Source: an uncultured Acidobacteriaceae bacterium (lineage in GTDB: Bacteria > Acidobacteriota > Terriglobia > Terriglobales > Acidobacteriaceae). From it: DNA of 57,121 bases. This document shows, in pieces, positions 4,644-57,121 of the stretch. Where the stretch lies: positions 1-57,121 of the forward strand of contig CAWBXL010000247.1 of the NCBI GenBank assembly GCA_963792305.1. Reading direction: 5' to 3'. Each line of letters opens with the position of its first letter. The stretch's first letter is position 1. The position numbers were made by a program, and so were the translations under genes. The notes under the pieces were generated by a model that made no database searches, had not been told where the DNA came from, and saw nothing but the letters and a program-made list of their open reading frames with translations.

Positions 4644-5429
4644 TCACGGTGTGGTCGTCGTCGACGGGGTCGTGCTCGGTGAGCTGCTCAGCGCCGGCGA
4701 GCGGCTTCAGCTGCTTGGCCAGTTGCTGGAGCTGTTTCTTGTCCGGCGCGGTCGGCTCCAGCTTCAGCACCTGCAGGACGGCGTGGTACGCGGTCGCGTA
4801 GTCGCGGGTGAACAGCGCATCGCGGTAGATGGCGCGCTGGATGGTGGAGTCGGTCGGGTTGATCGCCGCATCCCGCGACCACAGGCTGATGGCCTGGTCG
4901 GCGTCGCCCGTCGCCTGCTGCTCGTAGGTGGACGCCTTCTGCTGGAGCGGCTGTCTGGGCGTTGGTGATGAGCGGCGAGGTGACCGCGGCGGACAGCTTG
5001 CTGGCGGTGCCGGGCAGCGCGCTCGATGCCGGCTGGTACTGGCTGGCGAGCGACTGGTAGTAGGTCGCCAGCTGGCCGAGCGACTGCGCGCGCGTCTCGT
5101 ACAGGGTGGCGGCCTCGGACATCACGGAGCCGTTCTTGGGCTTCAGCTGGATGTATTGCTGGTAGGCGCCCAGCGCCGGGTCGGTCTGGCCGTCCGCCTG
5201 GTACGCGCGCGCCAGCTCGAGCCAGGCGCCGCTGGCCTTCGGATTTGCGTGCACCTGATCGAGCAGGCCGCTGATGCTGGTGCTCGACGACGAGCTCTGG
5301 CCCAGCAGGTTGCCGAGGCTGAGTCCGCCGACCCCCGACCCACGCCAGCAGCGTGAAGCTGAGCGCGAACACCACGCCAAGCACCATGAACACCGGCTTC
5401 TGGGTGCGTCTGATCTTTTCGAACAGCAT
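4644..5429 (-). CDS. Membrane-anchored TPR-repeat protein, frameshifted
   Basis: The N-terminus MLFEKIRRTQKPVFMVLGVVFALSFTLLAWVG (TM anchor, ORF 4764..5429) shifts to ORF 4688..5380 (AWLELARAYQADGQTDPALGAYQQYIQLKPKNGSVMSEAATLYE). It then shifts again to ..RDYATAYHAVLQVLKLEPTAPDKKQLQQLAKQLKPLAGAEQL..*, with the stop at 4644. Confidence 0.45.
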
Positions 5430-5510
5430 CAGGTCTCGGCAGCTCCTACAGCCCGATCATCTTGGCGCGGACGCGCCGAGCAGGTTCGGTGTCGGCGGTT
5501 TTTGCCGCTA

Positions 5511-5906
5511 GGGCAGCCCTGGCTAATTAAGAGACTATGGCCTGCAAACGAACTATGGCTCATTGCCGGATTGGTGATTGAAATCGCCGGAATGTTATTT
5601 GCAGTCTGGGCACGGCACACCCTGGGCAAAAACTGGACTGGACGCATCACAACCGGCGGTAGCCAGGAACTGATTATGCAGGGCCCGTACCGTCTGGTGC
5701 GACATCCGATTTACACGGGATTGTTGTGTGCGGTGCTGGGAACGGCCATGATAATTGGGGACCTGCATTCGGCGGTTGGATTTGCGGTCTTGCTAATTTC
5801 TATCTTGATCAAGCTTCGGCGGGAGGAAGCGGCACTCAGGCAGCATTTTGGCACGGCATATGAGGGCTATGCTCAGCGGGTGCCCATGCTGTTACCTGGA
5901 CTTTAG
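5511..5906 (+). pseudogene. Isoprenylcysteine carboxyl methyltransferase (ICMT)/phospholipid methyltransferase family protein, 3' fragment truncated at the composition junction
   Basis: The C-terminal part of ORF 5274..5906 reads LWLIAGLVIEIAGMLFAVWARHTLGKNWTGRI..QELIMQGPYRLVRHPIYTGLLCAVLGTAMI..LRREEAALRQHFGTAYEGYAQRVP, the ICMT-family signature region. The N-terminal TM helices and start codon are absent, and the upstream in-frame sequence is GC-rich foreign DNA. Confidence 0.6.
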
Positions 5907-5945
5907 ACAGTACTTTCTCTGATGCTTCACGCGTAAAATACATCT

Positions 5946-7100
5946 GTGCGTAAGTTTTGGGACAACTCGGTCAATGGAGGTACGGGCGTCCCGGCTACTA
6001 TTCCTGTCCCAGCACGCGTGTCGATTGGCGGAATTGAAATCGCTCCCGCCACCGTGCTCGCCCCCATGGCCGGAGTCACCGACACCGTCTTCCGCCGCTT
6101 CATCCGCAATCTCGGCGGATGCGGCCTGATCATGACCGAGTTCACCTCGGCCGATGGCGTCCTTGCGAAAAAAGACCGAAGGCCAAACGCTACCTGCATT
6201 TCTACGAAGACGAGCACCCGATTTCGGCCCAGCTCTTCGGCAGCGATCCGCAGGTGATGGCCGATGCCGCTCGCATGGTCGAAGACCTCGGCTTCGATCT
6301 GGTCGACCTGAACCTCGGCTGCCCCGCGAAAAAAGTTGTGAAGTGCAACGGCGGCTCAGGCCTCCTGCGCGATCTGCCCGCTCATCGGCAAGATTTTCGA
6401 ATCAGTGCGCGCGGCGGTGAAGATTCCCTTCACCGTGAAATTCCGCGCCGGCTGGAACGACGAAGAAATCGTCTGCGTCGAACTGGCCAAGATGGCCGAG
6501 GATTGCGGACTTGTGCGCAGTCGCGCTGCACGCCCGCACCCGCGAACAGGGCTACAGCGGCAACGCGCGCTGGGAGTGGATTGCCGCCATGAAAGATGCG
6601 GTGAAAATTCCGGTGATCGGCAACGGCGACATCCGCACTCCGGAAGACGCCTGCGCCATGGTCGACGCAGACCGGATGCGACGCGGTGATGATCGGCCGC
6701 ACTGCCGCCGTCGAATCCCTGGATCTTCCGCCAGATCGAACAGTATTCGGCTTACTTAGGCCGTGTGGAGGCGGGGCTCGCCCCGCCAGTTCAGACAGAT
6801 GGGGCAAGCCCCGTCTCCACGCAAACTATTTATGACCAACCATCGGAAGCCGACCGCTACGAGATGATCCGCACCTACTTCCGCATGCTGATCGAAGAAG
6901 AACTGCCTGATGCCACCGGCAAGATGAAACAGTTTTGCTCCTGGTTCACGCACGGAGTTCCCGGCGGAGCAGGGCTACGAAAAGCAATTTACGAATCGAA
7001 GAGCGCTCCACAGATTTTGAGCAATGTGGAAGAATTTTTTGAAGCACGTTTGGCCAGCCCAACGCCATCGCCAGATTCGCGACTCGTTCTCACACAGTAA
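5946..7100 (+). CDS. dusB: tRNA-dihydrouridine synthase (DusB-like), at least 4 frameshifts
   Basis: Successive frames read IAPATVLAPMAGVTDTVFRRFIRNLGGCGLIMTEF (5946..), HPISAQLFGSDPQVMADAARMVEDLGFDLVDLNLGCPAKKVVKCNGGSGLL (6119..) and VKIPFTVKFRAGWND (6405..). They continue as ALHARTREQGYSGNARWEWIAAMKDAVKIPVIGNGDI (6511..), GCDAVMIGRTAAV / NPWIFRQIEQY, and the C-terminus in ORF 6765..7100. Confidence 0.75.
6762..6822. repeat. REP-like palindromic element embedded in frame inside dusB
   Basis: The outer inverted repeat is cgtgtggaggcgggg / ccccgtctccacgc (12 of 14 bases pair). The inner perfect hairpin is ggcggggc-tc-gccccgcc (6770-6787). The element translates as ..RVEAGLAPPVQTDGASPVST.. between the conserved NPWIFRQIEQY and DQPSEADRYEMI segments. 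Confidence 0.55.
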
Positions 7101-33961: not shown

Positions 33962-34140
33962 GATGCACCCTCCGTTTCCCAGTCTTTAAACAGGTACCGT
34001 TGGAACGCTAATGCTGCTCCGCGAAGCGTGTCAACGATCGAAAGGAGAGGGGCCCAAGCTGGTTACTGCCAAACAACTTGCCGAGGAGATCGAGTGCATT
34101 GGCGCGCCTTGAGCGAAGTCGGAGGGGGCACACGCCCTTT

Positions 34141-34240
34141 GTTTTACATCGAGGAGTCAGAGCATCCATTGGCGCAGGAGCAGACACGGAATCAGCTACC
34201 AGCTGGCCATGGAGAGGGCGTCGCTTCGTCTGCATCACAG
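34141..34240. repeat. ~100-bp dispersed repeat, copy A
   Basis: gttttacatcgaggagtcagagcatccattggcgcaggagcag..ggaatcagctaccagctggccatggagagggcgtcgctt..tctgcatcacag is nearly identical to 35314-35416. One frame reads HGISYQLAMERASL, resembling a decayed Fis-type HTH. Confidence 0.7.
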
Positions 34241-34312
34241 GCGATGCTGGGTAGGACCTCTTCATAAACTGGAAAACGTTCCGTCTGTCTCCGATTTTCC
34301 CAAGCATTTCCC

Positions 34313-35126: not shown

Positions 35127-35313
35127 GTTGTCGCATCTCATTCCTGCGGATGCTCCGGTCATCTTGGAGAGCAGAGTTGAAGAGTCGGAAATTAATCAAG
35201 AGATCGAGAGTGCTCTCAACGCGCTGAGCGCGAAGAATCACTTTGCCTTTGTCGGGGACTAGGCTTGAAACAACGGGAAAGTCCCATCTGTCCCGTATTC
35301 GTCCGTTCTTAAT

Positions 35314-35416
35314 GTTTTACATCGAGGAGTCAGAGCATCCATTGGCGCCAGGAGCAGCAGCGCGGAATCAGTTACCAGCTGGCCATGGAGAGGGCGTCGC
35401 TTTATCTGCATCACAG
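35314..35416. repeat. ~100-bp dispersed repeat, copy B
   Basis: Same orientation and sequence as 34141-34240 apart from a few substitutions and small indels. It ends about 100 nt from the 3' end of the TIR/SIR2 operon. A diverged core copy lies at 30178-30220. Confidence 0.7.
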
Positions 35417-35514
35417 TCGGATGGCTAAGTTTACTAGTTATGAAGAAAACTTTGCTGGTATATACGTAAGCAAGTAATCCAAATATTTGGGGATCGCTGT
35501 CAGAACCCATGCCT

Positions 35515-35862
35515 TCAAGGGATGATCGCTTCGTAGCGGTTCATCCAAGATTGCAATTGTGGTAAATCGCTCATCTGTAAAACTGGTCGTAAAACAGTTA
35601 GCGCACGCCCGACAGGATCCGCATGCGACGCAGTGTCCACCAATGTCATCAAGATATCCTTATTACCACGCTCGTCGATAACACCAAGCGAATACGCGAG
35701 CTCACTAAGTTCAAAATGATTTCCAGTCGTAACGAAGTTACTTATCTTGCTTTTTAAAATATTAGCTGACAGACGACCGGCAGAACCAAGGGATTTGAAA
35801 TGGAGATGCGCACTACTTCTTTCATTTTGCGTTTCTAGAAAGAGCCATGGATAGGTATTCAT
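35515..35862 (-). CDS. Hypothetical 115-aa protein, last gene of the TIR/SIR2 operon (could be a frameshift-separated C-terminal domain of the SIR2 protein)
   Basis: The ATG at 35862 is preceded by an in-frame TAA and overlaps the SIR2 ORF by 41 nt. No motif is recognised (MNTYPWLFLETQNERSSAHLHFKSLGS..). Confidence 0.4.
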   Translation of the reverse strand: MNTYPWLFLETQNERSSAHLHFKSLGSAGRLSANILKSKISNFVTTGNHFELSELAYSLGVIDERGNKDILMTLVDTASHADPVGRALTVLRPVLQMSDLPQLQSWMNRYEAIIP

Positions 35863-36770
35863 TTAATCGAGGTCCAGGCACAGTCAATGAATTTTGCAAA
35901 ATAAAAGGTATATGAACGAAATCGCTCACATAAAGAACATGTATTCCGTACTTTCTCCGCAGTGCGATGTCGTTCACGGTAGTTTCTTCTTCATGAAATA
36001 TTGCTACATGGTTCCGCAATGGGGAACCGAATTGATGAGCTATTGAGTCGATGAATGTATCGAAATCTGGGTCACTGAGACGGAACCCAACAAACAATAG
36101 ATTGAAGTTTGTTAAACATATTTGAACAAAACCGCGATAAGCAGGAGAGCGGACTAAAAGCTCTCGATATGATTCCTCAGTTAATACCAGCTCAGAAGTT
36201 GAATCAAGCGAACCGTGCGCTTTGAGGTAGAACGGACGTAACGCTACCGTGAGTGCTTGCCGCAAAGCAACTTCATCACTAGGAACGATTGGGTCTAAAA
36301 CGATACCTTTCTTGAGAGCGGCATTTTCATTTGGCCGAATCATAATTGAAAGTGATAATACCGTTTGGTTGCAAATCGATGATAACTGAGTGTAATTCCG
36401 CGAACGAACCGTCGACGTTTGTGACCGCATTACGAAAAACAGTATCGAATTCCTTAGGCGAAACAGCCCGTAAAATTGATGCCGCCAAAATCAAGTCTGA
36501 TCCCGAAGGCCACTCCTTTCCCGCGCTCATAGAATCCAATCGCAGCAAGCGCTGGCAATCCTCGTAGTCTTGACTATTTAGGCGATCTTTAAAATGGTCA
36601 AACAAAGTTGAAAGTAGTCCAGGCCATTGAGGCACTCGCCTCGCGGGATCTGCTTTTTGAAGTAATGTGCTTGAGATTCCAGCACCCGTTATACAGACGA
36701 GGTGATCGCCGGCAACTAAATCACACAACTGTTGAAAAGCTGGGATTCCCAGCCAATAGCTCACGCTCAT
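35822..36770 (-). CDS. SIR2-like (SIR2_2 family) NAD+-utilising protein, split by a +1 frameshift at 36324-36340
   Basis: ORF 36327..36797 reads VCITGAGISS..VPQWPGLLSTL..GIITFNYDSA. ORF 35822..36430 reads NENAALKKG..LKAHGSLDSTSELVLTEESYREL..FNLLFVGFRLSDPDFDTFI. Removing one A from the AAA at 36330-36332 gives ..FNYDSANENAAL.. The ATG at 36770 overlaps the upstream stop as ATGA. Confidence 0.75.
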
Positions 36771-37522
36771 TTTCGAGCTTCCTGGCACTCTTTCCAAATA
36801 TCAGTCCAAAAAATCTTCCAACATTTGTCAAGCAATAGAGTTTGGTCGTGATATTCAATCATTTGATCGCTAGACAAATGGGCCCTTTCCACTAATTGAT
36901 GAGCCGCCTTGGAATGTTCAATCTCAATTTCAGAATGTCGGATAAAAAAATCTAATTCGGTTTCAGAAAAGCCTAAACTTCGGAGTGTTTCCAGAAGTGG
37001 GCCATAGGTAGCAACGGCTGAAGATTCGAGAAAGCAATAAGTAGCTAACGCTCGGGGTAGAGAATTGCCTCCGAAGGCCATCTCCAATTCGCACACATAC
37101 CAACGAACGCCGGGAGCAACTTGTCCAGGTTTTAGTGGGAGTTCGCCTGGATCAATTCCTGCGGCCTTTGCAAAGCGCTCAAATATGATTGAATGCACTA
37201 AATTATGTTTACCTGAACCCAATTCCTCAAACAGAACTTCGGCGAAGAGTGCCATTGATTCACGGTCGGTTCGAGGGATTGTAGCCAGCAACCGAGAAAA
37301 TGCAACGACTTGATTTATTGAGAAATAGTGATAATGCTTGGCAAATGTTCTTATCGCAAATCTAGGGTCGGATGATTTAACAACCCATTGCATCCACTGA
37401 TGTTCAACAGATGCATCATTTGATATCGACTTAGAGTTATTGATACTTGTCATGGACATTCTCACATAATTTTTAGATTCCCAAACCTTGATATACAGCA
37501 TCGCTATAGTAATACTACTCAT
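36767..37522 (-). CDS. Haem-oxygenase-like / iron-containing redox enzyme family protein (PF14518-like)
   Basis: Intact 251 aa. FAKHYHYFSINQVVAFSRLL, FAEVLFEELGSGKHNLVHSIIFERFAKAAGI, ATYCFLESSAVATYGPLLETLRSLG and LDFFIRHSEIEIEHSKAAH follow the helical E/H ligand pattern of HO-like di-iron enzymes. The start ATG overlaps the TIR-like gene's stop (ATGAGTAG). Confidence 0.6.
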   Translation of the reverse strand: MSSITIAMLYIKVWESKNYVRMSMTSINNSKSISNDASVEHQWMQWVVKSSDPRFAIRTFAKHYHYFSINQVVAFSRLLATIPRTDRESMALFAEVLFEELGSGKHNLVHSIIFERFAKAAGIDPGELPLKPGQVAPGVRWYVCELEMAFGGNSLPRALATYCFLESSAVATYGPLLETLRSLGFSETELDFFIRHSEIEIEHSKAAHQLVERAHLSSDQMIEYHDQTLLLDKCWKIFWTDIWKECQEARK

Positions 37523-37979
37523 ATTGCTGAATAGATGCTTTAATTTGCCTATGTTGGATAGGGAAGTTATCTAATGCATATTGAATAATTTTAGCTTTAT
37601 ATTCGACGTGCACAGCAGGCCATATTCGGAGTGCGGCTGGACAAAGATCAGCATCTATCTGTCTTTTCCCGTTAAGATTAACGACGACAATCGGCAAATC
37701 GAGTTTTTGAGATATCTCAATTTCCCAAGCCACCCACTTTCTCAGATTTTTAGTGTTGTTCCCGACCAACACAATCGCCTGTTTTGCATTTGAAAATCTT
37801 TCTCTCAATCGACTTTTTATCGTTTCGTCCGAAGCTCTATCAGTAAGCATCCCTATGTCATGCGCATTATGGAAATTGAAGTCCATATTTTCATTCGATT
37901 TCCAGCCCTTCATGTACCGATAGGCCCTAATATCGGTATCCGCGTCGAAGATAATGTAGGTCTTGTTGCGATAGCTCAT
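37515..37979 (-). CDS. TIR-like domain protein (DUF1863 / ThsB-like)
   Basis: Intact 154 aa. KTYIIFDADTDIRAYRYMKGW.. and ..AIVLVGNNTKNLRKWVAWEIEIS..LPIVVVNL parallel ThsB (KRVFFSFHYQD..; VLIGSQTFNRRWVRYEI..IIGIHIN). A Glu sits at the position of the ThsB catalytic Glu. Confidence 0.7.
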   Translation of the reverse strand: MSYRNKTYIIFDADTDIRAYRYMKGWKSNENMDFNFHNAHDIGMLTDRASDETIKSRLRERFSNAKQAIVLVGNNTKNLRKWVAWEIEISQKLDLPIVVVNLNGKRQIDADLCPAALRIWPAVHVEYKAKIIQYALDNFPIQHRQIKASIQQYE

Positions 37980-37992
37980 ATCTTTCTGAAAT

Positions 37993-38029
37993 CAAAAAAG
38001 GGGGGGACACGGCGCACCGTGTCCCCCTT
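37993..38029 (-). terminator. Strong intrinsic terminator-like hairpin between nrdJ and the TIR-like gene
   Basis: The minus strand reads GGGGGACACGG-tgcg-CCGTGTCCCCC followed by ccTTTTTTgattt. The U-tract ends about 14 nt before the TIR-like ATG at 37979. Confidence 0.6.
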
Positions 38030-38154
38030 GCACAGAACGTCTTTCAATTTTGGTTGTAGGGCCCTGGATTCCGATGCCGTCTACACGGCATCCCCGAAAA
38101 TCCCACAACAGATTCCTCGCCGCAAACCGCGCGGCTCGGAATTACAACTGAAAT

Positions 38155-41151: not shown

Positions 41152-41344
41152 CGCTCTGTTTCTCCCTTTATATTGTCTCGGATTCTGGGGGATCCGTTGA
41201 TACCGTCTTCTATGTACCGTCCCTGAAGGGACTCTGTCTTTTATCTTTCTTTCCCGGCACTGCCGTGCCGGGCTTTCTTATTCCGTTCGCTTCGCGACTG
41301 GCGGGTCAAAGACCCGCCACTATACATCCACAACAAATTCAAAA

Positions 41345-50635: not shown

Positions 50636-50870
50636 CTACGAATTTTCTTTGTGGGCCAAGCGGGCTCGGCCTACGCGGCGTTCACCTTCAGAAACTAAAT
50701 AAACTTCTACTACCGCGCCGTCGGGAAGGGCTGTGGTGGAGTTGCACAGAAATCCGCCGACGCTTACGTTTTCGGTGGCAGTCAATTCATCGAAACGCTT
50801 GCCTTCGGCATCGGTGCCGCTTAGTTTCAGGATGGTCCGCATGCGGATGCGCACGTGGGCGCGGCGTTGT
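50636..50870 (-). pseudogene. PilZ-domain protein, C-terminal fragment truncated at the right composition junction
   Basis: The last ~75 aa of ORF 50636..52261 read RRAHVRIRMRTILKLSGTDAEGKRFDELTATENVSVGGFLCNSTTALPDGAVVEVYL, with RxxxR and (D/N)xSxxG-type PilZ motifs in moderate-GC DNA. There is no start codon of its own, and it is fused in frame to GC-rich kinase sequence. Confidence 0.5.
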
Positions 50871-52745
50871 CCGCGGATCCGGGTCCCGCCACCGGGACCT
50901 GACACGACCTCGAACCGTCCGCCCAGCGCGGCGACGCGATCGCGCATGTTGTCGAGACCGCGACGTTGCGTGGCCTCCACGTCGAAGCCGGGCCCGTCGT
51001 CGCGGACCTCGAAGCGCAGGTCGCTGCCGAGCTCGAGCACGACCCAGATCCGCGTGGAGCCGTGCGCGTGCTTCGCGACGTTCTGCATCGCCTCGAGGCA
51101 GCAGAAGTACACCGCGGCCTCGACCTCGTCGGCGTAGCGGTCGGACCCGTTCACCTTCACGTTCACAGGCAGGGGCGACTCCGTGGCCACGGCGCGGACC
51201 GCGTCGGGCAGGCCGTGGGCGGCGAGCGCCGCCGGGTAGACGCCTGCGGCGAGCGACCGGAGCTCCTCGAGCACGCCATCGACGTCGCGCGCGAGCCGCT
51301 GGAGCATCTCGCGGGCCCCGGCCGGGCTCTGGCGATCATCTCCTCGGCGAGCTGCAAGCGGATGCGCAGCGCGACGAGCCGTTGCTGGCCCCCGTCGTGG
51401 AGGTCGCGCTCGATCCGGCGGCGCTCGTCGTCGGCGGCCGCGAGGATGCGCGCCCGGGACTCCTGCAGCTCCTCGTTGGACGTGTCGACGCGCTCGGCGA
51501 GGCGCTGGTTCTCGTCCCAGACGAGCGCGAAGCCGCCGACCGCCTCCAGGTATGCCCGCTGCTCGTTGAGCCCCGCGTCGTGGATGAGAGCTGCGACCGG
51601 GCCGGCGTCGGACTCGATGACGGTGACCGCTCGGTCGGAGCCGTCCTCGGGCAGCCACGCGGGCCACCCGTCGGCGGTCACCCAGCCGTCCACGTCGCGC
51701 GGCCGGGGGTACACGAGCTCGAGCGACGGGTCCATGACCACCTTGGCGATCGCGCTGCGCCGCTCCTCGGTGGTGTGGGCGGCGCGGAGACGCTGTGCCA
51801 GCAGCAGGAGCGCGTCGGCCGCGTACAGCCGCCAGCTCAGGAGGCCGGCAAGGAACCCGAGCGACATGAGCGGCAGGCTCAGCGCGAGTGTGTCGGCCAG
51901 CCACGTGGCGCTGCCGTCGTCGATCACCCCGGCTCGGCGGAGGACGATCCAGGTGCCGAGCGACGATGCGGACGATCGCGCACAGCAGGACGGGGAGGAG
52001 CGCGCGCCGCATGAGGCGCGTCGCGTGCTGGAGTCGGTACGCCAGGCGCCACACGATCAGGGCGGTGATCAGGACCGTGATCGCCTCCCACCGGGAGGAC
52101 CCCGTCCGTGATCCATCCGGGCGTCGACGCACAGCAGGGTCAGCGCGTTGGCGGGCAGTCGGCGGTGGCACGTGACGTAGTAGGCGCGGGCGCGGGAACT
52201 GCTCGACCAGGAACCCGGTCGGGATGTAGAGGATCCCGATGAGCGCCACGACCGCTCCCACGAGCAGCGCGGTCGGTACGGCCCGGAAGCCGCCCGAGGG
52301 GAACGCAGGATGAGGTAGACGATCCCGACCTCCGCCACCCAGGCGGCAGCCGGCCGACGCTGTACGGGAGCGTCGGTCGCGCGGAAGGGCGACGACGGAC
52401 CGACAGACCGACGGCGACGAGCAGGCGCCCGAACCGGGCGTGGGTCGCCTCGCGCCAGGCGTAGAGCCCGACGGCGATCGGCGCGCCGATCATGAGCGCG
52501 TTGCGGACCGCCAGCCTGCCCGGGCTCGGGCATCCCCCGGTCAGCGCGAGGACGCACCGACGCGGCCACGGAGCAGCAGCCGAGCGCGGCGACGCCGAGG
52601 ACGACCCGCGTGCTCGCGCCGGGCCGAGACGGCGAGGCTGCGCGGACTCGGCCGTCCGGCGGTCGGCCGATCGATGGCATAGCCGACTCTGTGAGGCTGG
52701 GGCGGGGCGCCGAAAGGGACACCCACGAACGTGGCGCGCACACAC
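50871..52745 (-). CDS. Membrane sensor histidine kinase (HisKA_3 + HATPase_c), frameshifted and 3'-truncated at the junction
   Basis: The HisKA_3 region is ERRRIERDLHDGGQQRLVALRIRLQLAEE (ORF 51163..51927). The ATPase region is AAVYFCCLEAMQNVAKHA..LRFEVRDDGPGFD..RGLDNMRDRVAALGGRFEVVSGPGGGTRI (ORF 50636..52261). TM-like segments lie in ORFs 52069..52743 and 52140..52745. Confidence 0.55.
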
Positions 52746-52801
52746 TACAGCCTCGCCCGGAATACGGACGCGGCCAGCCGGCCCGCGCCGGACGGCGCCG
52801 T

Positions 52802-53095
52802 CAGTTCTGCAGGATGCGCGCCTTCTCGGCGGCGAACTCCGTCGTCGGTGAGCACGCCCTGCTCCTTGAGCTCGGCCGAGCTGCGTGAGCTTGTCGATGC
52901 GGCTCTCGGCTCGGCGCGGCGCCGGCGGCGGCGGCGGCGGCGGCTGCGGCGCCTGCTGCGGCTAGGCCTGCCTGCTGCTGCGCGTCCTCCGCGCCCCACT
53001 TGTTCGCCTGGCGGCGGCTGACGCGGTTGGAGACGGTGGTCGCGGTGCCCGGCGATCACCGCGGTGCGGCCGACCCCGCGGAGCAGTCCTGGCAT
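52802..53095 (-). CDS. SHOCT-domain small protein, frameshifted
   Basis: MPGLLRGVGRTAVIAG (ORF 52745..53095) ..VSNRVSRRQ.., an Ala/Gln-rich linker over a GCG/GGC repeat, then ..LAELKEQGVLTDDEFAAEKARILQN* (stop at 52802) read across frames. Confidence 0.45.
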
Positions 53096-53114
53096 GGGTC
53101 AGGTCCTTTCGCGT

Positions 53115-53569
53115 TCAGCCGGCGGCCGACTCGGCGGCGTCGAGGGCGGCGATGAGATCGGCGTGCGGGATGCGCTGGTTGTCGAGGAGCACGCCCGCCG
53201 TTGCGGCGGACGGCGGCGGCGAACGGCGCGGCCCAGCGGTTCTCGTACATGATCATCACGGCCGCGGTGCCGGGCTCGATCGTCGTCCGCGACCGTCGCG
53301 ACGTCGTCGTCGCCGAGCAGGCCGCTCGACGCGCCCTGCGAAGACGTGCAGGTCGCCGAGGCTGTCGCGCGTCGACGTCCGTCGGCCTCGAAGCCGGCGA
53401 ACGTGCCGTCCTCGCCTTGCATCACGAAGAGCACGTCGAGCACGCGGATGATGCCCCGGTCGACGAGGTCGAGCAGCAGCGGGACGGCCTCGCCGGTCAT
53501 CGGCGCGTCGGCCGGATAGCCGATCACGACGATGTCGATCGGGCCGAGCTCCTCTTCCTGTGCTTCCAT
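53115..53569 (-). CDS. DUF6325-like protein (partner of SHOCT proteins in Actinobacteria), frameshifted
   Basis: GPIDIVVIGYPADAPMTGEAVPLLLDLVDRGIIRVLDVLFVMQGEDGTFAGFE (ORF 53099..53569). It continues as ..SSGLLGDDDV.., YENRWAAPFAAAVRRNGG (ORF 53056..53259) and ..IPHADLIAALDAAESAAG* in other frames. Confidence 0.4.
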
Positions 53570-53610
53570 GGTTGCCTCCGTTTCGTGCGCTACGCCGTTG
53601 CGCCGCCACG

Positions 53611-54543
53611 CTAACCCGGCCCGGGTGCGGGGGCATCACCTGGACCGGATGATAAGCCGCTCACGCAGCCGCCGGCGCGGGGGCCTGCGACGCAGCGGCG
53701 GGGCGCGAGGTCGGCCAGCGTGAGCAGATGGCGCGGCGGCGTCGAGGACCGCGTGCGGACGGTGACCTCAGGCCGGCCCCGACGTGCAGCAGCTCGCCCG
53801 AGCGAGCGCCGCCAGCCGGGGTCCTCGTCCATGCGCTCGCTGGCGACGATCACGGCGGGTGGCGCGTGAGGTGCGCCGGAGCGGACGCGCACCGTGCCGG
53901 CGGCGCTGGCGGCGTCGAGGTGACGATCGCCGCGCGGGCCGCCGGCGGCGCGCTCGAGCACCCACAGCTCGTGCGTGTCGGGGTAGCGGAGCGCCCACAG
54001 CCCGTCCGCGGTGGCCAGGATCGAGGTTGATCGCGAAAGCGGGAGGTTGCGCGGCGACCCAGCGGGCGGCCGCGGTGATGCCCGCCCCCACGTCGCCGCC
54101 GTGGCGCTCGGTCTCGCGCGGTGATCAGCGCGAACAGCCGCTCGGAGTCGGTGTCGCCGCGGACGAGCGCGCAGGTCGTCGCCGAGCTCGTGCTCGAGCC
54201 GCGTCGAGGTCCTCGATCACGCCGTTGTGGGCGAACAGCCGGCCGCGCTGCTCGAACGGGTGCGTGTTGCGCACGCTCGATCGCGCCGGTCGTCGCGTAG
54301 CGGATGTGGGCGACGAACGTCCGTCGACTCGAGCTCGCGCGCCTCGCGCGCGAACTCCCGGTCCTCGTAGGCGGCGATCGGCTGCTTGGCGACGCTGCGG
54401 CGCGCCCGTCCTCGCCGAACCAGCCCAGGCCGGTGCCGTCGGGCTCGCGGCGGCTCTGCGCGCGAGGCTGTCGGGCGCCTCGAGCAGCCAGAACGTCGCC
54501 TGACCGGCGTCCGCCCGCGGTCATGCCCGAACAGGCGACACAT
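53611..54543 (-). CDS. Class II (Ntn-type) glutamine amidotransferase, multiply frameshifted
   Basis: MCRLFG at 54543 carries the Cys2 nucleophile. Further pieces read EPDGTGLGWFGEDGR, KQPIAAYEDREFAREARELES, TFVAHIRYATTGAIE, VRGDTDSERLFALIT, GAGITAAARWVAAQPPAFAIN and AVIVASERMDEDPGW, spread over several frames. The 3' end is approximate. Confidence 0.5.
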
Positions 54544-54552
54544 GCCCGGTAC

Positions 54553-56431
54553 CTACGGCAGGCCCGGGGACGGGCTGAGCGCCGTCAGCGCGATTGCCGC
54601 GGGCCGGCCCGAGGGCGGCCGGTTCGCCAGCCGCGTGCGGACGCGGCGCCCGCCGAGCCGGCCGGCCAGCACGCCGCGCCGGCTCACGACGACCCGGCCG
54701 TGGGCGGCGCGCGCGCCGGCGATCCGCAACTTCGAGCGCGCCGCGGGCCGTGGCGCGCCCGCTCACGCGCACGCCGGGCACGACGATCACGCCGCGGAGC
54801 CGCGCGGCGGCGCCGAGGCGGTAACGCCCGCCGCGCAGCCTGCCCCCGCGCCGCGCACGGCGTCGAACGCGGGCGAGCCGGCGAGGTCGAGGAAGTCGAG
54901 CGTCGCGTCGATCGCCCCGACCGTGCTGGCCCGTGCTGCGCAAGGCAGGCCGGGCCGCGGCGCCAGCTGCGCAAAGGCGGCCGGCGGGACGGCGGTGGCG
55001 GGGACGCCGGTCGCGACGCGCGGGCAGCGCGTGCCGGCGGGCCGGGGCCCGCGACGAAGCGCAGCAGGGCCGGCGCACGCCGCATCCGCTGGGATCCGCG
55101 CCGACGATCGCGTGCCCCACGCCCGGTACGGTCACGCGCTGCGCGCCCGGGATCCGGGCGGCGATGCGGGCGGAGACCTCGGGCGGCGTGCGCAGGTCCT
55201 CCCCGCCCTGGAGGATCAGGGTCGGCACGGTCGGGTATGGCCGCCGGCCGCGGCGGCGGACGGGTCGGGCCAGCGCAGGCAGAGGTCGATCTCGTCCTCG
55301 ACGACGATCGGCGGCGTCGAACGGCGCGAACGTGTTCGCGGGCAGCGCCGCGAGCCGCTGCTGGGCGACCGCGGGCCGCTGGTCGATCGGCGTCCCCGGG
55401 TCCCAGGGCATCGGCGACGTCTCGCAGACGGTCGAGTAGCGCGCGACGGAGAAGTCGCGCGGCGAGCCGAGGCACGTCGAGCGTCGCGGAGCACGGAGCA
55501 TCCGCGGCCAGCAGCGCGCCGTCGCCGGCAGCGCCGAGCGGACCGCGATCGGGAGATCGCCCGCAGCGGCGGGATGTAGTCGGTCGACAGCATCAGGTCG
55601 AACAGCGCCAGCGGCGTGATCGTGACCTGGTGGCGGCCGTGGGCGTCGTAGGCCACGCTCCACCATCGGCTTGGCGCGCAGGCGGGCGACCAGCGTCGCG
55701 AGGTCGGCGGCGGGGTCGGCGCTGATGCCCGCGCAGGGCCGGGGCAGAGCGAGCGCAGCGTCGCGCCCATCGCGCGGAACGTCGCGGTGAGGAACGGGTC
55801 GCGGTCGTCGGGGTCGACGACGGAGTCGAGGATCAGCCGCTCGACGTGCTGCGGGTAGGTGCGCGCGTACGCGATCGCGAGCTCGGTGCCGTAGGAGATC
55901 CCGAACAGCGTCAGCTTGTCGACGCCCAGCTGCGCGCCGGATCGCCTCCATGTCCTGCGACGGAGTCCGCCGTCGTGTAGTGGTGGCGGCGACGCCGAGC
56001 CGGTTCGCGCAGTCCTCGCCCGCGGACGTGCTGCGCAGGTGCGGGTCGCGTCTCGAGCTCCGGGCAGCGCAGCAGGCCGGAGCGGCCGGTGCCGCGCTGG
56101 TCGTAGCCGATCAGCCGGAAGCGCGCTCGAGCTGCGGGACCGCGGCTGAGGACGCTGAGCATCTCGCTCACGCCGGCGCCGCCCGGGCCGCCGGAGAGGT
56201 ACATCAGCGTCGGGCCGGTCGGGCTGCCGGCGCGGGCGACGCGGAGGTCGATCGTGCCGGGATCGCGCCGCGCGCGATCGAGCGGGACGGTGAGCGTCGC
56301 GCAGCGCGACGTCGCGGAAGTCGACGCACGGCCCCAGTCGCAGCGCCGCGCGCGGCGTTCGGGAGCGAGGCAGCGCGGCGAGCGCGAGCAGCGCGGGAAG
56401 AACGGCCCTCCGGGCCGTGGACGGCGACCAT
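54553..56431 (-). CDS. Secreted alpha/beta hydrolase (tripeptidyl aminopeptidase/TAP-like), multiply frameshifted
   Basis: The pieces read LTVPLDRARRDPGTIDLRVAR..PTLMYLSGGPGGAGVSEM..FRLIGYDQRGTGRSGLLRCPELE (ORF 55911..56726 frame) and VDKLTLFGISYGTELAIAYARTYPQHVERLILDSVVDPDDRDPF (55216..56760 frame). A third piece reads PTLILQGGEDLRTPPEVSARIAARIPGAQRVTVPGVGHA (54521..55951 frame). The ends are approximate. Confidence 0.5.
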
Positions 56432-56452
56432 AGGCGGCGGAGCGTAGCGGCG

Positions 56453-56991
56453 TCAGGGGCGCAAGCGGCGCGGCGAGCGGCTCGTAGCGGGCGCCGCGCG
56501 GGCCGCAGGCGGACGAGTAGAGCGTGACCGCCGCGGCGTTGAACTCGAGCGGATCGAGGCGCGACCATCGGCGTGCGGGCGGGCGCGTGCGCGGCCGCAG
56601 CCGGGCGACGGTGACGTGCGGGCGGAACGGGCGCGCTTCGGGCGTGTAGACGCCGGCGGCGGCGAGCGCGGCCGAGACGCGCGCCTGCAGCGCCGCGAGC
56701 CCGCCCGCTGGGTCCGCGAGCGCCACCGTGAGGACGCGCGGCGCGCCGGGGCGGGAGCACGAGCGGGTCGCCGAGCGCGAGCCGCGGCGCGGCGAAGGCC
56801 TAGGCGGCGACCAGGCGGGGCGATGGCGTCGACGTCCGCCGCGGGCGAACCGAGGAAGGCGAGCGTGACGTGCGAACGTCGCCGGGTCGAGCGGCCGCCA
56901 GACGACCGGGATCCGCGGCGGCGTCGCGGAAGCGGATCAGCGCGTCTCAGCGACCGGCGTCGGGCAGGTCGAGGGCGCAGCCGCAGCGTCA
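56453..56991 (-). CDS. 2H phosphoesterase / RNA 2',3'-cyclic phosphodiesterase (ThpR/LigT-like), frameshifted
   Basis: Two H-x-T-x motifs are present: HVTLAFLG (ORF 56453..57118 frame) and RPFRPHVTVARL (ORF 55911..56726 frame). There is also ..ALDLPDA.. near the GTG at 56991 and AVTLYSS..ARYEPLA at the C-terminus. Confidence 0.5.
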
Positions 56992-57121
56992 CGCCAGCAG
57001 GCGGCGCAGCAGGTGCATGACGACGTCGTCCGCTCGCGCACCAGCCCGCGGTCCCCGGGCAGCTGCACCGTGCGGTCGAGCCGTAGCAACACGAACTGAA
57101 CCGAGGCCACGTGGACATAGA

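Follow-up and report, generated by a model that had tools for sequence, protein, structure and literature searches.

Why would the gene of an oxidase stand between genes for two kinds of NAD-cleaving proteins, TIR and SIR2? This arrangement occurs on the reverse strand of contig CAWBXL010000247.1, a stretch of 57,121 nucleotides (nt) from an uncultured Acidobacteriaceae bacterium (assembly GCA_963792305.1), hereafter called the window. A preliminary description had placed a haem-oxygenase-like di-iron enzyme there between a TIR-like and an SIR2 gene. Indeed, a thsB gene of the Thoeris type lies upstream of the gene for this haem-oxygenase-like di-metal oxidase (HDO) and an SIR2_2 gene lies downstream. 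We find that the HDO is a partner dedicated to an SIR2 NADase of the defence type; its identity, together with its obligate linkage to SIR2, is held with high confidence. As a whole, the statement that the HDO is the catalytic subunit of an SIR2 defence effector is our best explanation, to which we give a probability a little below one half. The pairing points to an undescribed oxygen- and metal-dependent component of NAD-based bacterial immunity.

Fold and predicted metal site of the oxidase

The longest open reading frame (ORF) of the HDO gene has 251 codons (36767-37522), and the two motifs quoted for it earlier, FEELGSGKHNLVHS and FFIRHSEIEIEH, are present as exact translations. Its product matches Pfam family PF14518 (Haem_oxygenas_2, “iron-containing redox enzyme”) at 67.0 bits, for a gathering score of 28.9 (E = 2.4e-18), which by profile score puts the assignment far above chance level. 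The same family is found in 15 of 15 close homologues. An AlphaFold2 model built with 15 homologues has a mean predicted local distance difference test (pLDDT) value of 88.3 and a predicted template modelling (TM) score, pTM, of 0.81, with disorder limited to the first 34 residues. When this model was compared with the PDB using Foldseek, the best match was CADD of Chlamydia (8vag; TM score 0.80, root-mean-square deviation 2.3 Å); FlcD, SznF, HrmI, PqqC, BesC, and UndA ranked below it. At the sequence level, a profile of the HDO family also recovers FlcD, BesC, CADD, and SznF. Orthology with CADD is not supported, the TIGR04305 model giving 19.3 bits for a cut-off of 200.

Six predicted ligands, E100, H110, E166, H196, E200, and H203, carried by three helices (Table 1), align with the E / H / E / H-x3-(D/E)-x2-H positions of CADD and BesC and are expected to converge in space on a di-metal site. 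All six are invariant in an alignment of 38 sequences reaching down to 27% identity. They are also unchanged, in the profile alignment, in every complete family member checked, fusions included. Seven other residues, Y64, F67, S68, Q71, S111, Y142, and Y173 (that is, the motif YHYFSxxQ together with S111, Y142, and Y173), are invariant within the family and differ in the wider superfamily, which suggests a candidate family-specific pocket. The closest match outside the family, P0046 (E = 1.6e-34), is the N-terminal haem-oxygenase-like domain of a 1415-residue non-ribosomal peptide synthetase with PP-binding, condensation, and AMP-binding domains, where four of the six metal ligands are gone. 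As judged from these alignments, the window protein is an oxidase of this fold with a predicted metal site that is intact and strongly constrained. The enzyme class proposed in the preliminary description, which relied on a conserved constellation of metal ligands, is upheld by Pfam family, fold, and the full set of aligned, invariant ligands alike.

The family is small and sharply bounded. A word-indexed search of 5.8 billion proteins returned 15 members. When 1.84 billion cluster representatives were searched exhaustively with a profile, 33 were recovered at E<1e-30; beyond these, scores fall abruptly to the general HDO background. Members come from soil, rhizosphere, and sediment metagenomes, and the genome-bin hosts are Acidobacteriota (including Thermoanaerobaculia) and Limisphaerales. 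No relative was found in viral contigs scanned with the family profile, and a fold search of BFVD gave only haem oxygenases of giant viruses and no phage HDO.

The homologues have 202-237 residues and are thus shorter than the 251-residue product of the window ORF. Residues 1-34 of the latter show no conservation and have pLDDT values below 50, the conserved core beginning at about residue 38, and alternative starts at M22 (37459) and M24 (37453) are as plausible as that of the longest ORF. For these reasons, the overlap of the HDO start with thsB is uncertain. Illumina contigs confirm the HDO and thsB sequences of the window without gaps.

Linkage of the oxidase to SIR2

Gene neighbourhoods were scored with hidden Markov models for the HDO, the SIR2 protein, and ThsB at 24 loci, about 17 of them distinct. 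An SIR2_2 protein of 424-462 residues is encoded directly downstream of the HDO, on the same strand, in 15 of the 16 informative distinct loci. The sole exception (L018) holds a distant HDO member, at 34% identity, with no adjacent downstream SIR2 gene. In 11 loci out of 13 there is an overlap between the HDO stop and the SIR2 start, five of them having the 4-nt ATGA overlap that occurs in the window at 36767-36770; the window overlap would be longer if SIR2 starts at the TTG of 36797. Hence, of the two overlaps claimed previously for the HDO gene, the one at the stop stands and the one at the start is not secure. In addition, pairwise identities of HDO and SIR2 proteins correlate (r = 0.73 over 78 pairs). 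A metatranscriptome contig corresponding to 36721-36999 spans the junction of the two genes with zero differences from the window and is weak evidence of co-transcription.

In one lineage the two proteins are fused. P0022 (690 residues, found on six contigs) and P0166 (677 residues) share 61% identity, and two truncated relatives are known. A model of P0022, made from an alignment subset chosen by MAFFT trials, has a pLDDT of 90.8 and a pTM of 0.74, and its last HDO helix (184-218) leads, by way of a short junction modelled with confidence, into the first helix of SIR2. In our reading, HDO and SIR2 make up a module whose genes are inherited together, coupled in translation, and in some cases fused, and the earlier argument that the HDO is no mere passenger is borne out by adjacency, stop overlaps, and fusions.

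The dependence is one-way. SIR2 proteins of the same type do occur without an HDO, for example P0189, from a gammaproteobacterial bin, and P0170; the HDO therefore requires SIR2, SIR2 does not require the HDO, and the HDO is an accessory of SIR2. P0170 (L027 2613-7377) is encoded back to back with a 1097-residue NACHT and FGE-sulfatase protein and near a reverse transcriptase gene, in a neighbourhood that resembles those of defence systems.

HDO domains are also found fused to TIR domains. Proteins of 603 residues (P0065, P0190-P0192; L029 2454-4271) consist of an N-terminal TIR_2 domain, a central HDO, and about 240 residues without assigned function. Within this family, identities are 57-91%, clusters hold 8-40 member sequences, and all six ligands are kept. 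At L029 the gene adjoins a 691-residue pentapeptide-repeat gene and a BrnA antitoxin gene. From the two kinds of fusions it follows that two unrelated NAD-cleaving folds, SIR2 and TIR, are each joined to an HDO.

The SIR2 partner and its reading frame

The middle ORF of the window SIR2 gene matches PF13289 (SIR2_2; E = 1.6e-19). The catalytic N112 and H152 of BcThsA align with the SIR2 motifs TFNYD and KAHG, both present in the window. The closest structures are those of EcThsA, BcThsA, the SIR2 domain of DSR2 (TM score 0.75), and KomC of the Kongming system. The PADLOC models of ThsA cover the SIR2 half only, up to about position 273 of 478, so that no SLOG/STALD signal-binding domain was found with these models in the SIR2 partner. 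In the fusion model, the 150 C-terminal residues form eight helices, and one homologue has a sub-threshold match to HEAT_2. Similarly, the Dsr2 model of PADLOC matches the SIR2 part only, and the NCBIfam Dsr2 model NF041819 gives 30 bits for a cut-off of 1400, over the SIR2 domain only. In its layout, the SIR2 partner is a miniature DSR2.

The preliminary description had treated SIR2 as one gene downstream of the HDO. The SIR2_2 identity is confirmed; in the window, the gene is read as three ORFs (36797-36327, 36430-35822, and 35862-35515), with further homology up to a stop at 35438. Comparison with intact homologues by tblastn places the changes of frame near 36331-36336, at 35825, and at 35496-35530. 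Over the SIR2 region, contigs assembled from short reads of four soil metagenomes are 99-100% identical to the window and differ from it by single-base insertions or deletions (indels). These fall at 35825 and within 35496-35530 (35496, 35516, 35528, and 35530), and a compensating pair is found at 36115/36120. When they are applied, pieces 2-4 of SIR2 become one frame ending in YLDYLLTYIPAKFSS before the stop codon, like the homologues. The second and third frameshifts are thus assembly errors, or at most differences of one assembly, because independent Illumina contigs do not have them. At the first frameshift (36331-36336), one contig ends with a 2-base difference that alone does not restore the frame, and four further runs gave no coverage. 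For the second and third frameshifts, which the Illumina contigs do not show, a pseudogene reading of SIR2 was rejected.

As single-base indel errors occur in the SIR2 region, other genes of the contig may hold similar artefacts. At the closest homologous locus (L007 2135-3567, HDO 71% identical), two frames are likewise needed to read SIR2 near its N-terminus, owing to either an assembly indel or a real disruption.

ThsB, an optional partner

The window ThsB is 58% identical to the TIR protein IMG 2923628127, which belongs to a type VII Thoeris system chosen for experimental testing (cluster 2598792572), according to the available part of a survey of TIR systems that covers 29 effector types (Yirmiya et al. 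2025, bioRxiv 10.64898/2025.12.03.692087). In the same part of that survey, the effectors that accompany the TIRs of this cluster are of the Macro (type II), SLATT (type VII), and ion-channel (type X) kinds.

ThsB is encoded upstream of the HDO in 4 of about 14 loci, namely the window, L013 (Limisphaerales), L019, and L020-22. It is absent from the remaining loci with enough upstream sequence, about 70% of the informative ones, and ThsB as an obligate member was rejected on this count. The association with TIR and SIR2 suggested at the outset thus holds for SIR2 as a constant partner and fails for TIR. For the same reason, modification of a TIR-made signal, one of the roles then envisaged for the HDO, cannot be its general function.

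Between the window and L013, ThsB is 65% and HDO 39% identical; between the window and L020, the values are 35% and 58%. Because ThsB identity is decoupled from HDO identity in these comparisons, the HDO-SIR2 pair has gained or swapped ThsB partners more than once, from unrelated ThsB lineages. Such repeated recruitment argues for a functional link and against chance adjacency. ThsB is a recurrent, optional add-on to HDO-SIR2.

At L006, an HDO-SIR2 pair devoid of ThsB is preceded, 300 nt upstream and on the same strand, by an incomplete ORF (3-875) that has the central domain of a poly(A) polymerase (PF04928, E = 7e-20); this ORF could be an alternative maker of nucleotide signals.

What the oxidase may do

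We consider it probable that the HDO-SIR2 module is an anti-phage or abortive-infection system, the pair being, as we infer, the effector module of a system of the Thoeris or DSR kind. By homology with Thoeris and DSR2, ThsB, where present, would sense infection and make an ADP-ribose-derived signal; without ThsB, the trigger would come from the helical C-terminal domain of SIR2 or from the HDO. SIR2 would then cleave NAD+, as its conserved catalytic N and H and its nearest structures, ThsA, DSR2, and KomC, suggest. The HDO, with Fe or Mn and O2, might act on an NAD-derived small molecule common to the SIR2 and TIR reactions. Since most loci have no TIR, a TIR-specific signal is unlikely as its substrate. 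NAD+ cleavage is the common denominator of the SIR2 and TIR partners, and for this reason the most economical candidate would be an NADase product (nicotinamide or ADP-ribose) or a derivative, converted to something else.

That the HDO acts catalytically on an NAD-derived molecule, and not just as a sensor, is put forward tentatively, the odds lying somewhat against it. An enzyme that has been turned into a sensor normally loses its catalytic residues, whereas the HDO has retained its ligands; it is on this ground that a catalytic role may be proposed. In its strongest form, in which an O2- and metal-dependent oxidase would be built into an NAD+-based immune effector as its catalytic arm and would transform what the NADase releases, the proposal is rather unlikely.

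Several points weigh against the HDO as a catalytic subunit of a defence effector. The census has about 17 distinct loci as its base, many on short contigs. SIR2 relatives at about 44% identity stand without an HDO, which is therefore dispensable for the SIR2 scaffold. The P0022 fusion model carries no inter-domain co-evolution signal, and the metatranscriptome contig at the HDO/SIR2 junction may be DNA carry-over. Several hosts are labelled Thermoanaerobaculia, in which an O2-dependent enzyme might perhaps be restricted. No other recognised defence genes were found in the neighbourhoods examined, save at L027, which has no HDO. To our knowledge, the substrates of known HDO enzymes are amino acids, fatty acids, and amines; nucleotides are not among them. 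More generally, the function ascribed to the module is one suggested by sequences and models.

The main rival reading makes the HDO a ligand-sensing or regulatory subunit of SIR2, equivalent to the SLOG domain of ThsA or to KomB. A small-molecule signal made by ThsB, by another enzyme, or by the phage would bind in the pocket of the helical bundle and switch SIR2 on, catalysis serving only for signal turnover. In a variant, the HDO would keep SIR2 off in the manner of an antitoxin. This would supply what SIR2 seems to lack, since neither SLOG nor another known nucleotide-sensor domain is seen in it, its C-terminus being all-helical with the weak HEAT_2 match. It would also fit the position of the HDO, N-terminal to the effector in the fusions as in sensor-effector architectures, and the association of the pair with several ThsB lineages. 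A precedent is KomBC, where a partner with an enzyme fold senses a nucleotide for an SIR2 effector (PMC13454610, in the part available; 9v0g and 9xvc are among the structural matches). However, the six ligands have not gone the way of those of recruited sensors, and their invariance down to 27% identity differs from the fate of the synthetase-attached domain of P0046, which has a different role and has lost four. Besides, about 70% of loci have no adjacent signal-making gene, and the helical C-terminal domain of SIR2 offers an alternative sensor, as in DSR2. On balance, we regard a sensor as unlikely, though worth serious attention.

A further reading is that HDO-SIR2 is not an immune module at all. 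It would then be a metabolic or stress module in which adjacency to ThsB is secondary: an iron-, oxygen-, or redox-responsive NAD-consuming switch, an oxidase acting together with an ADP-ribosyltransferase or deacylase of the SIR2 type, or a pathway of two enzymes that yields an NAD-derived metabolite. At most loci the surrounding genes are indeed housekeeping ones (aconitase, formate dehydrogenase, ABC transporters, nrdJ), and no further defence genes are seen. The rest of the HDO superfamily serves biosynthesis, the nearest outgroup match is the peptide synthetase domain, and the HDO has no match in the viral contigs or in PADLOC. Yet no further biosynthetic genes are conserved around HDO-SIR2, SIR2 belongs to PF13289 with defence NADases (ThsA, DSR2, KomC) as its nearest structures, and ThsB was recruited repeatedly and independently. 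Defence is also favoured by the mobile or low-GC context of the cassette and by P0170, the SIR2 relative without an HDO whose neighbours include a NACHT protein and a reverse transcriptase. A non-immune module is quite improbable in our view.

Lastly, that the HDO is an unrelated passenger or a decaying remnant of a degraded Thoeris locus, as three SIR2 ORFs in the window might suggest, is largely refuted and hardly credible, because Illumina contigs from the population of the window lack two of the three frameshifts as well as the compensating indel pair, these contigs also confirm the HDO, which is intact, and the pairing is conserved across phyla, fusions included.

Relation to known systems

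Catalytic or not, the HDO was found in no described defence system that could be consulted. At E<=1, no family of PADLOC-DB v2 matches it. NCBIfam has no curated family for it and, for the SIR2 partner, only the far-sub-threshold Dsr2 match mentioned above. Full-text literature searches returned no description of an HDO in an SIR2, TIR, or Thoeris system; the sole apparent match for an HDO-type term was “Tenacibaculum”, which is irrelevant. Neither oxygenase, iron, nor PF14518 is mentioned in the text, or in part of the tables, of the TIR-system survey (10.64898/2025.12.03.692087). Within the catalogue and literature so covered, the earlier statement that such an enzyme is not part of known TIR/SIR2 immune modules is sustained.

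Type I Thoeris is close in several respects. The window has a ThsB-family TIR gene directly upstream of its SIR2 effector, the HDO gene apart, and the SIR2 domain of its family is nearest to ThsA in sequence and structure, with the catalytic N and H kept; the window SIR2 is scored as ThsA-like only when it is read through the assembly frameshifts. However, ThsA has an SIR2-SLOG organization, whereas the window SIR2 lacks SLOG/STALD and combines a helical C-terminal domain with an HDO as obligate partner. Type I Thoeris has ThsB, whereas most HDO-SIR2 loci do not. Moreover, the window ThsB comes from a cluster otherwise used, in the part of the survey available, by Thoeris types II, VII, and X.

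DSR2 has the same succession of an N-terminal SIR2 NADase and an all-helical, repeat-like C-terminal domain, the SIR2 domains superposing at the TM score of 0.75 given above. It is a single-gene system, and solo relatives of the window SIR2 likewise exist. In contrast, DSR2 has about 1000 residues and no oxidase partner, and the window SIR2 has about 450 residues and the HDO. As far as sequences and models tell, HDO-SIR2 shows no sign of the tail-tube binding of DSR2.

In Kongming, the SIR2 effector KomC, one of the structural matches, is complexed with a protein of enzyme ancestry, KomB, which has a purine NTP pyrophosphatase fold and senses dITP, as stated in the available part of the source (PMC13454610). 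The HDO differs from KomB in having a di-metal haem-oxygenase-like fold with all ligands intact. The signal maker of Kongming is a deaminase/kinase, whereas that upstream of HDO-SIR2, when present, is a TIR.

CADD, BesC, SznF, FlcD, UndA, RohS, and HrmI share with the window HDO the helical fold (TM score 0.80 to CADD) and the E / H / E / H-x3-E-x2-H arrangement. Identities are however 15-20%, and the window family has its own invariant candidate pocket residues. The known HDO enzymes stand in biosynthetic clusters, and the genomic partner of the window HDO is an NADase.

All characterised NAD-based defences known to us (Thoeris, DSR, SIR2-HerA, SPARSA, Kongming) use hydrolytic or cyclising chemistry. 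An oxygen-activating metalloenzyme was not found in any NAD-based defence catalogued or covered by the literature searches. HDO-SIR2 is probably an NAD-depleting SIR2/TIR defence with a new, perhaps catalytic component.

Genomic setting and other features of the window

The thsB-HDO-SIR2 block has a GC content of 37-48%, compared with 54-61% in its flanks. Its upstream edge, where GC rises from about 40% to about 58%, lies at the terminator of nrdJ (Table 1), 22 nt before the thsB start. A contig of another sample covers 37793-38061 without differences and confirms this junction. A horizontally acquired, Thoeris-like cassette is the best explanation for the block. No tRNA was found at the island border, nor any excess of sigma-70-like promoters.

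Apart from SIR2, no neighbours are conserved around HDO loci. Around the HDO-SIR2 pairs are found aconitase, formate dehydrogenase, ABC transporters, GNAT, a TonB receptor, a DDE transposase, and a tyrosine recombinase array; a transposase adjoins the HDO locus L008. Location of HDO-SIR2 in a biosynthetic cluster was rejected, as the neighbours vary between loci. The census thus bears out the association with SIR2 where homologues in ordinary biosynthetic clusters had been considered. At L013 (4860-13530), ThsB-HDO-SIR2 lies inside an array of at least three repeat units of about 2.5 kb with 92-97% identity. At least one unit has a confirmed tyrosine recombinase and the others have ORFs of similar size. 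These surroundings are mobile or prone to recombination.

A direct repeat of about 105 nt is present at 34140-34243 and 35313-35419, a 36-nt part being 100% and a 57-nt part 93% identical. The second copy starts about 20 nt past the SIR2 stop at 35438; a dispersed repeat, a miniature inverted-repeat transposable element, or a mark of the island edge is possible. Short-read contigs over 35300-35416, in the repeat region, have several indels. The Rfam Acido-Lenti-1 RNA motif (RF01687) is found at 41253-41299 on the forward strand (44.4 bits, gathering score 37), just upstream of the nrdJ start codon and on the opposite strand; it fits an acidobacterial origin. Finally, the window ends (1 to about 5400 and about 50800 to 57121) have a GC content of 70-78%, compared with about 52% in the middle 45 kb. 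The change near 50,800 is sharp, and that at the 5′ end is a stepwise fall from about 5,300 to 7,000. The contig has the look of a chimera or of pieces of different genomes joined together.

Table 1. Features of the thsB-HDO-SIR2 cassette and its upstream edge in the window.
Feature	Position	Strand	Basis
SIR2 effector gene, about 445 residues when read through; likely start ATG 36770	35438-36797	-	PF13289, tblastn, Illumina contigs, alignment with BcThsA
HDO gene, longest ORF, 251 codons	36767-37522	-	PF14518, AlphaFold2 model, Foldseek
Ligand helix FFIRHSEIEIEH (H196, E200, H203)	36914-36949	-	Translation; aligned with H-x3-D/E-x2-H of CADD and BesC; invariant
Ligand helix FLESSAV (E166)	37013-37033	-	Translation; aligned with the ES ligand of CADD and the DE ligand of BesC; invariant
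Ligand helix FEELGSGKHNLVHS (E100, H110)	37190-37231	-	Translation; aligned with the E...H ligands of CADD and BesC; invariant
thsB, Thoeris-type TIR-like, 154 residues, WEIE catalytic-Glu motif present	37515-37979	-	PF08937 (E = 9e-19); PADLOC ThsB1 PDLC00429 (E = 1e-60)
Intrinsic terminator of nrdJ (B12-dependent ribonucleotide reductase)	38002-38027	-	11-bp stem (9 G-C), then a T run; strong

Implications for NAD-based immunity

A conserved, ligand-complete HDO tied to SIR2, with another clade fused to TIR, suggests that molecules derived from NAD undergo oxidative chemistry. Certain phages can restore NAD+ from ADP-ribose and nicotinamide. If catalysis by the HDO is real, it might destroy one or the other, thereby preventing the reconstitution pathways of the phage from rebuilding the pool, and NAD+ depletion would become irreversible through the oxidative removal of an NADase product. 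Alternatively, the HDO might turn such a product into a new toxic or signalling molecule. In either case, since HDO domains have been joined independently to the SIR2 and TIR folds, oxidative editing of NAD-derived molecules would be a new biochemical layer in bacterial immunity. The hypothesis is directly testable, as intact three-gene and two-gene versions and natural fusions exist. Were it confirmed, bacterial immune effectors would gain a new enzyme class, a new NAD+-derived small molecule might come to light, and the HDO field would have a new class of substrates, nucleotides or pyridines.

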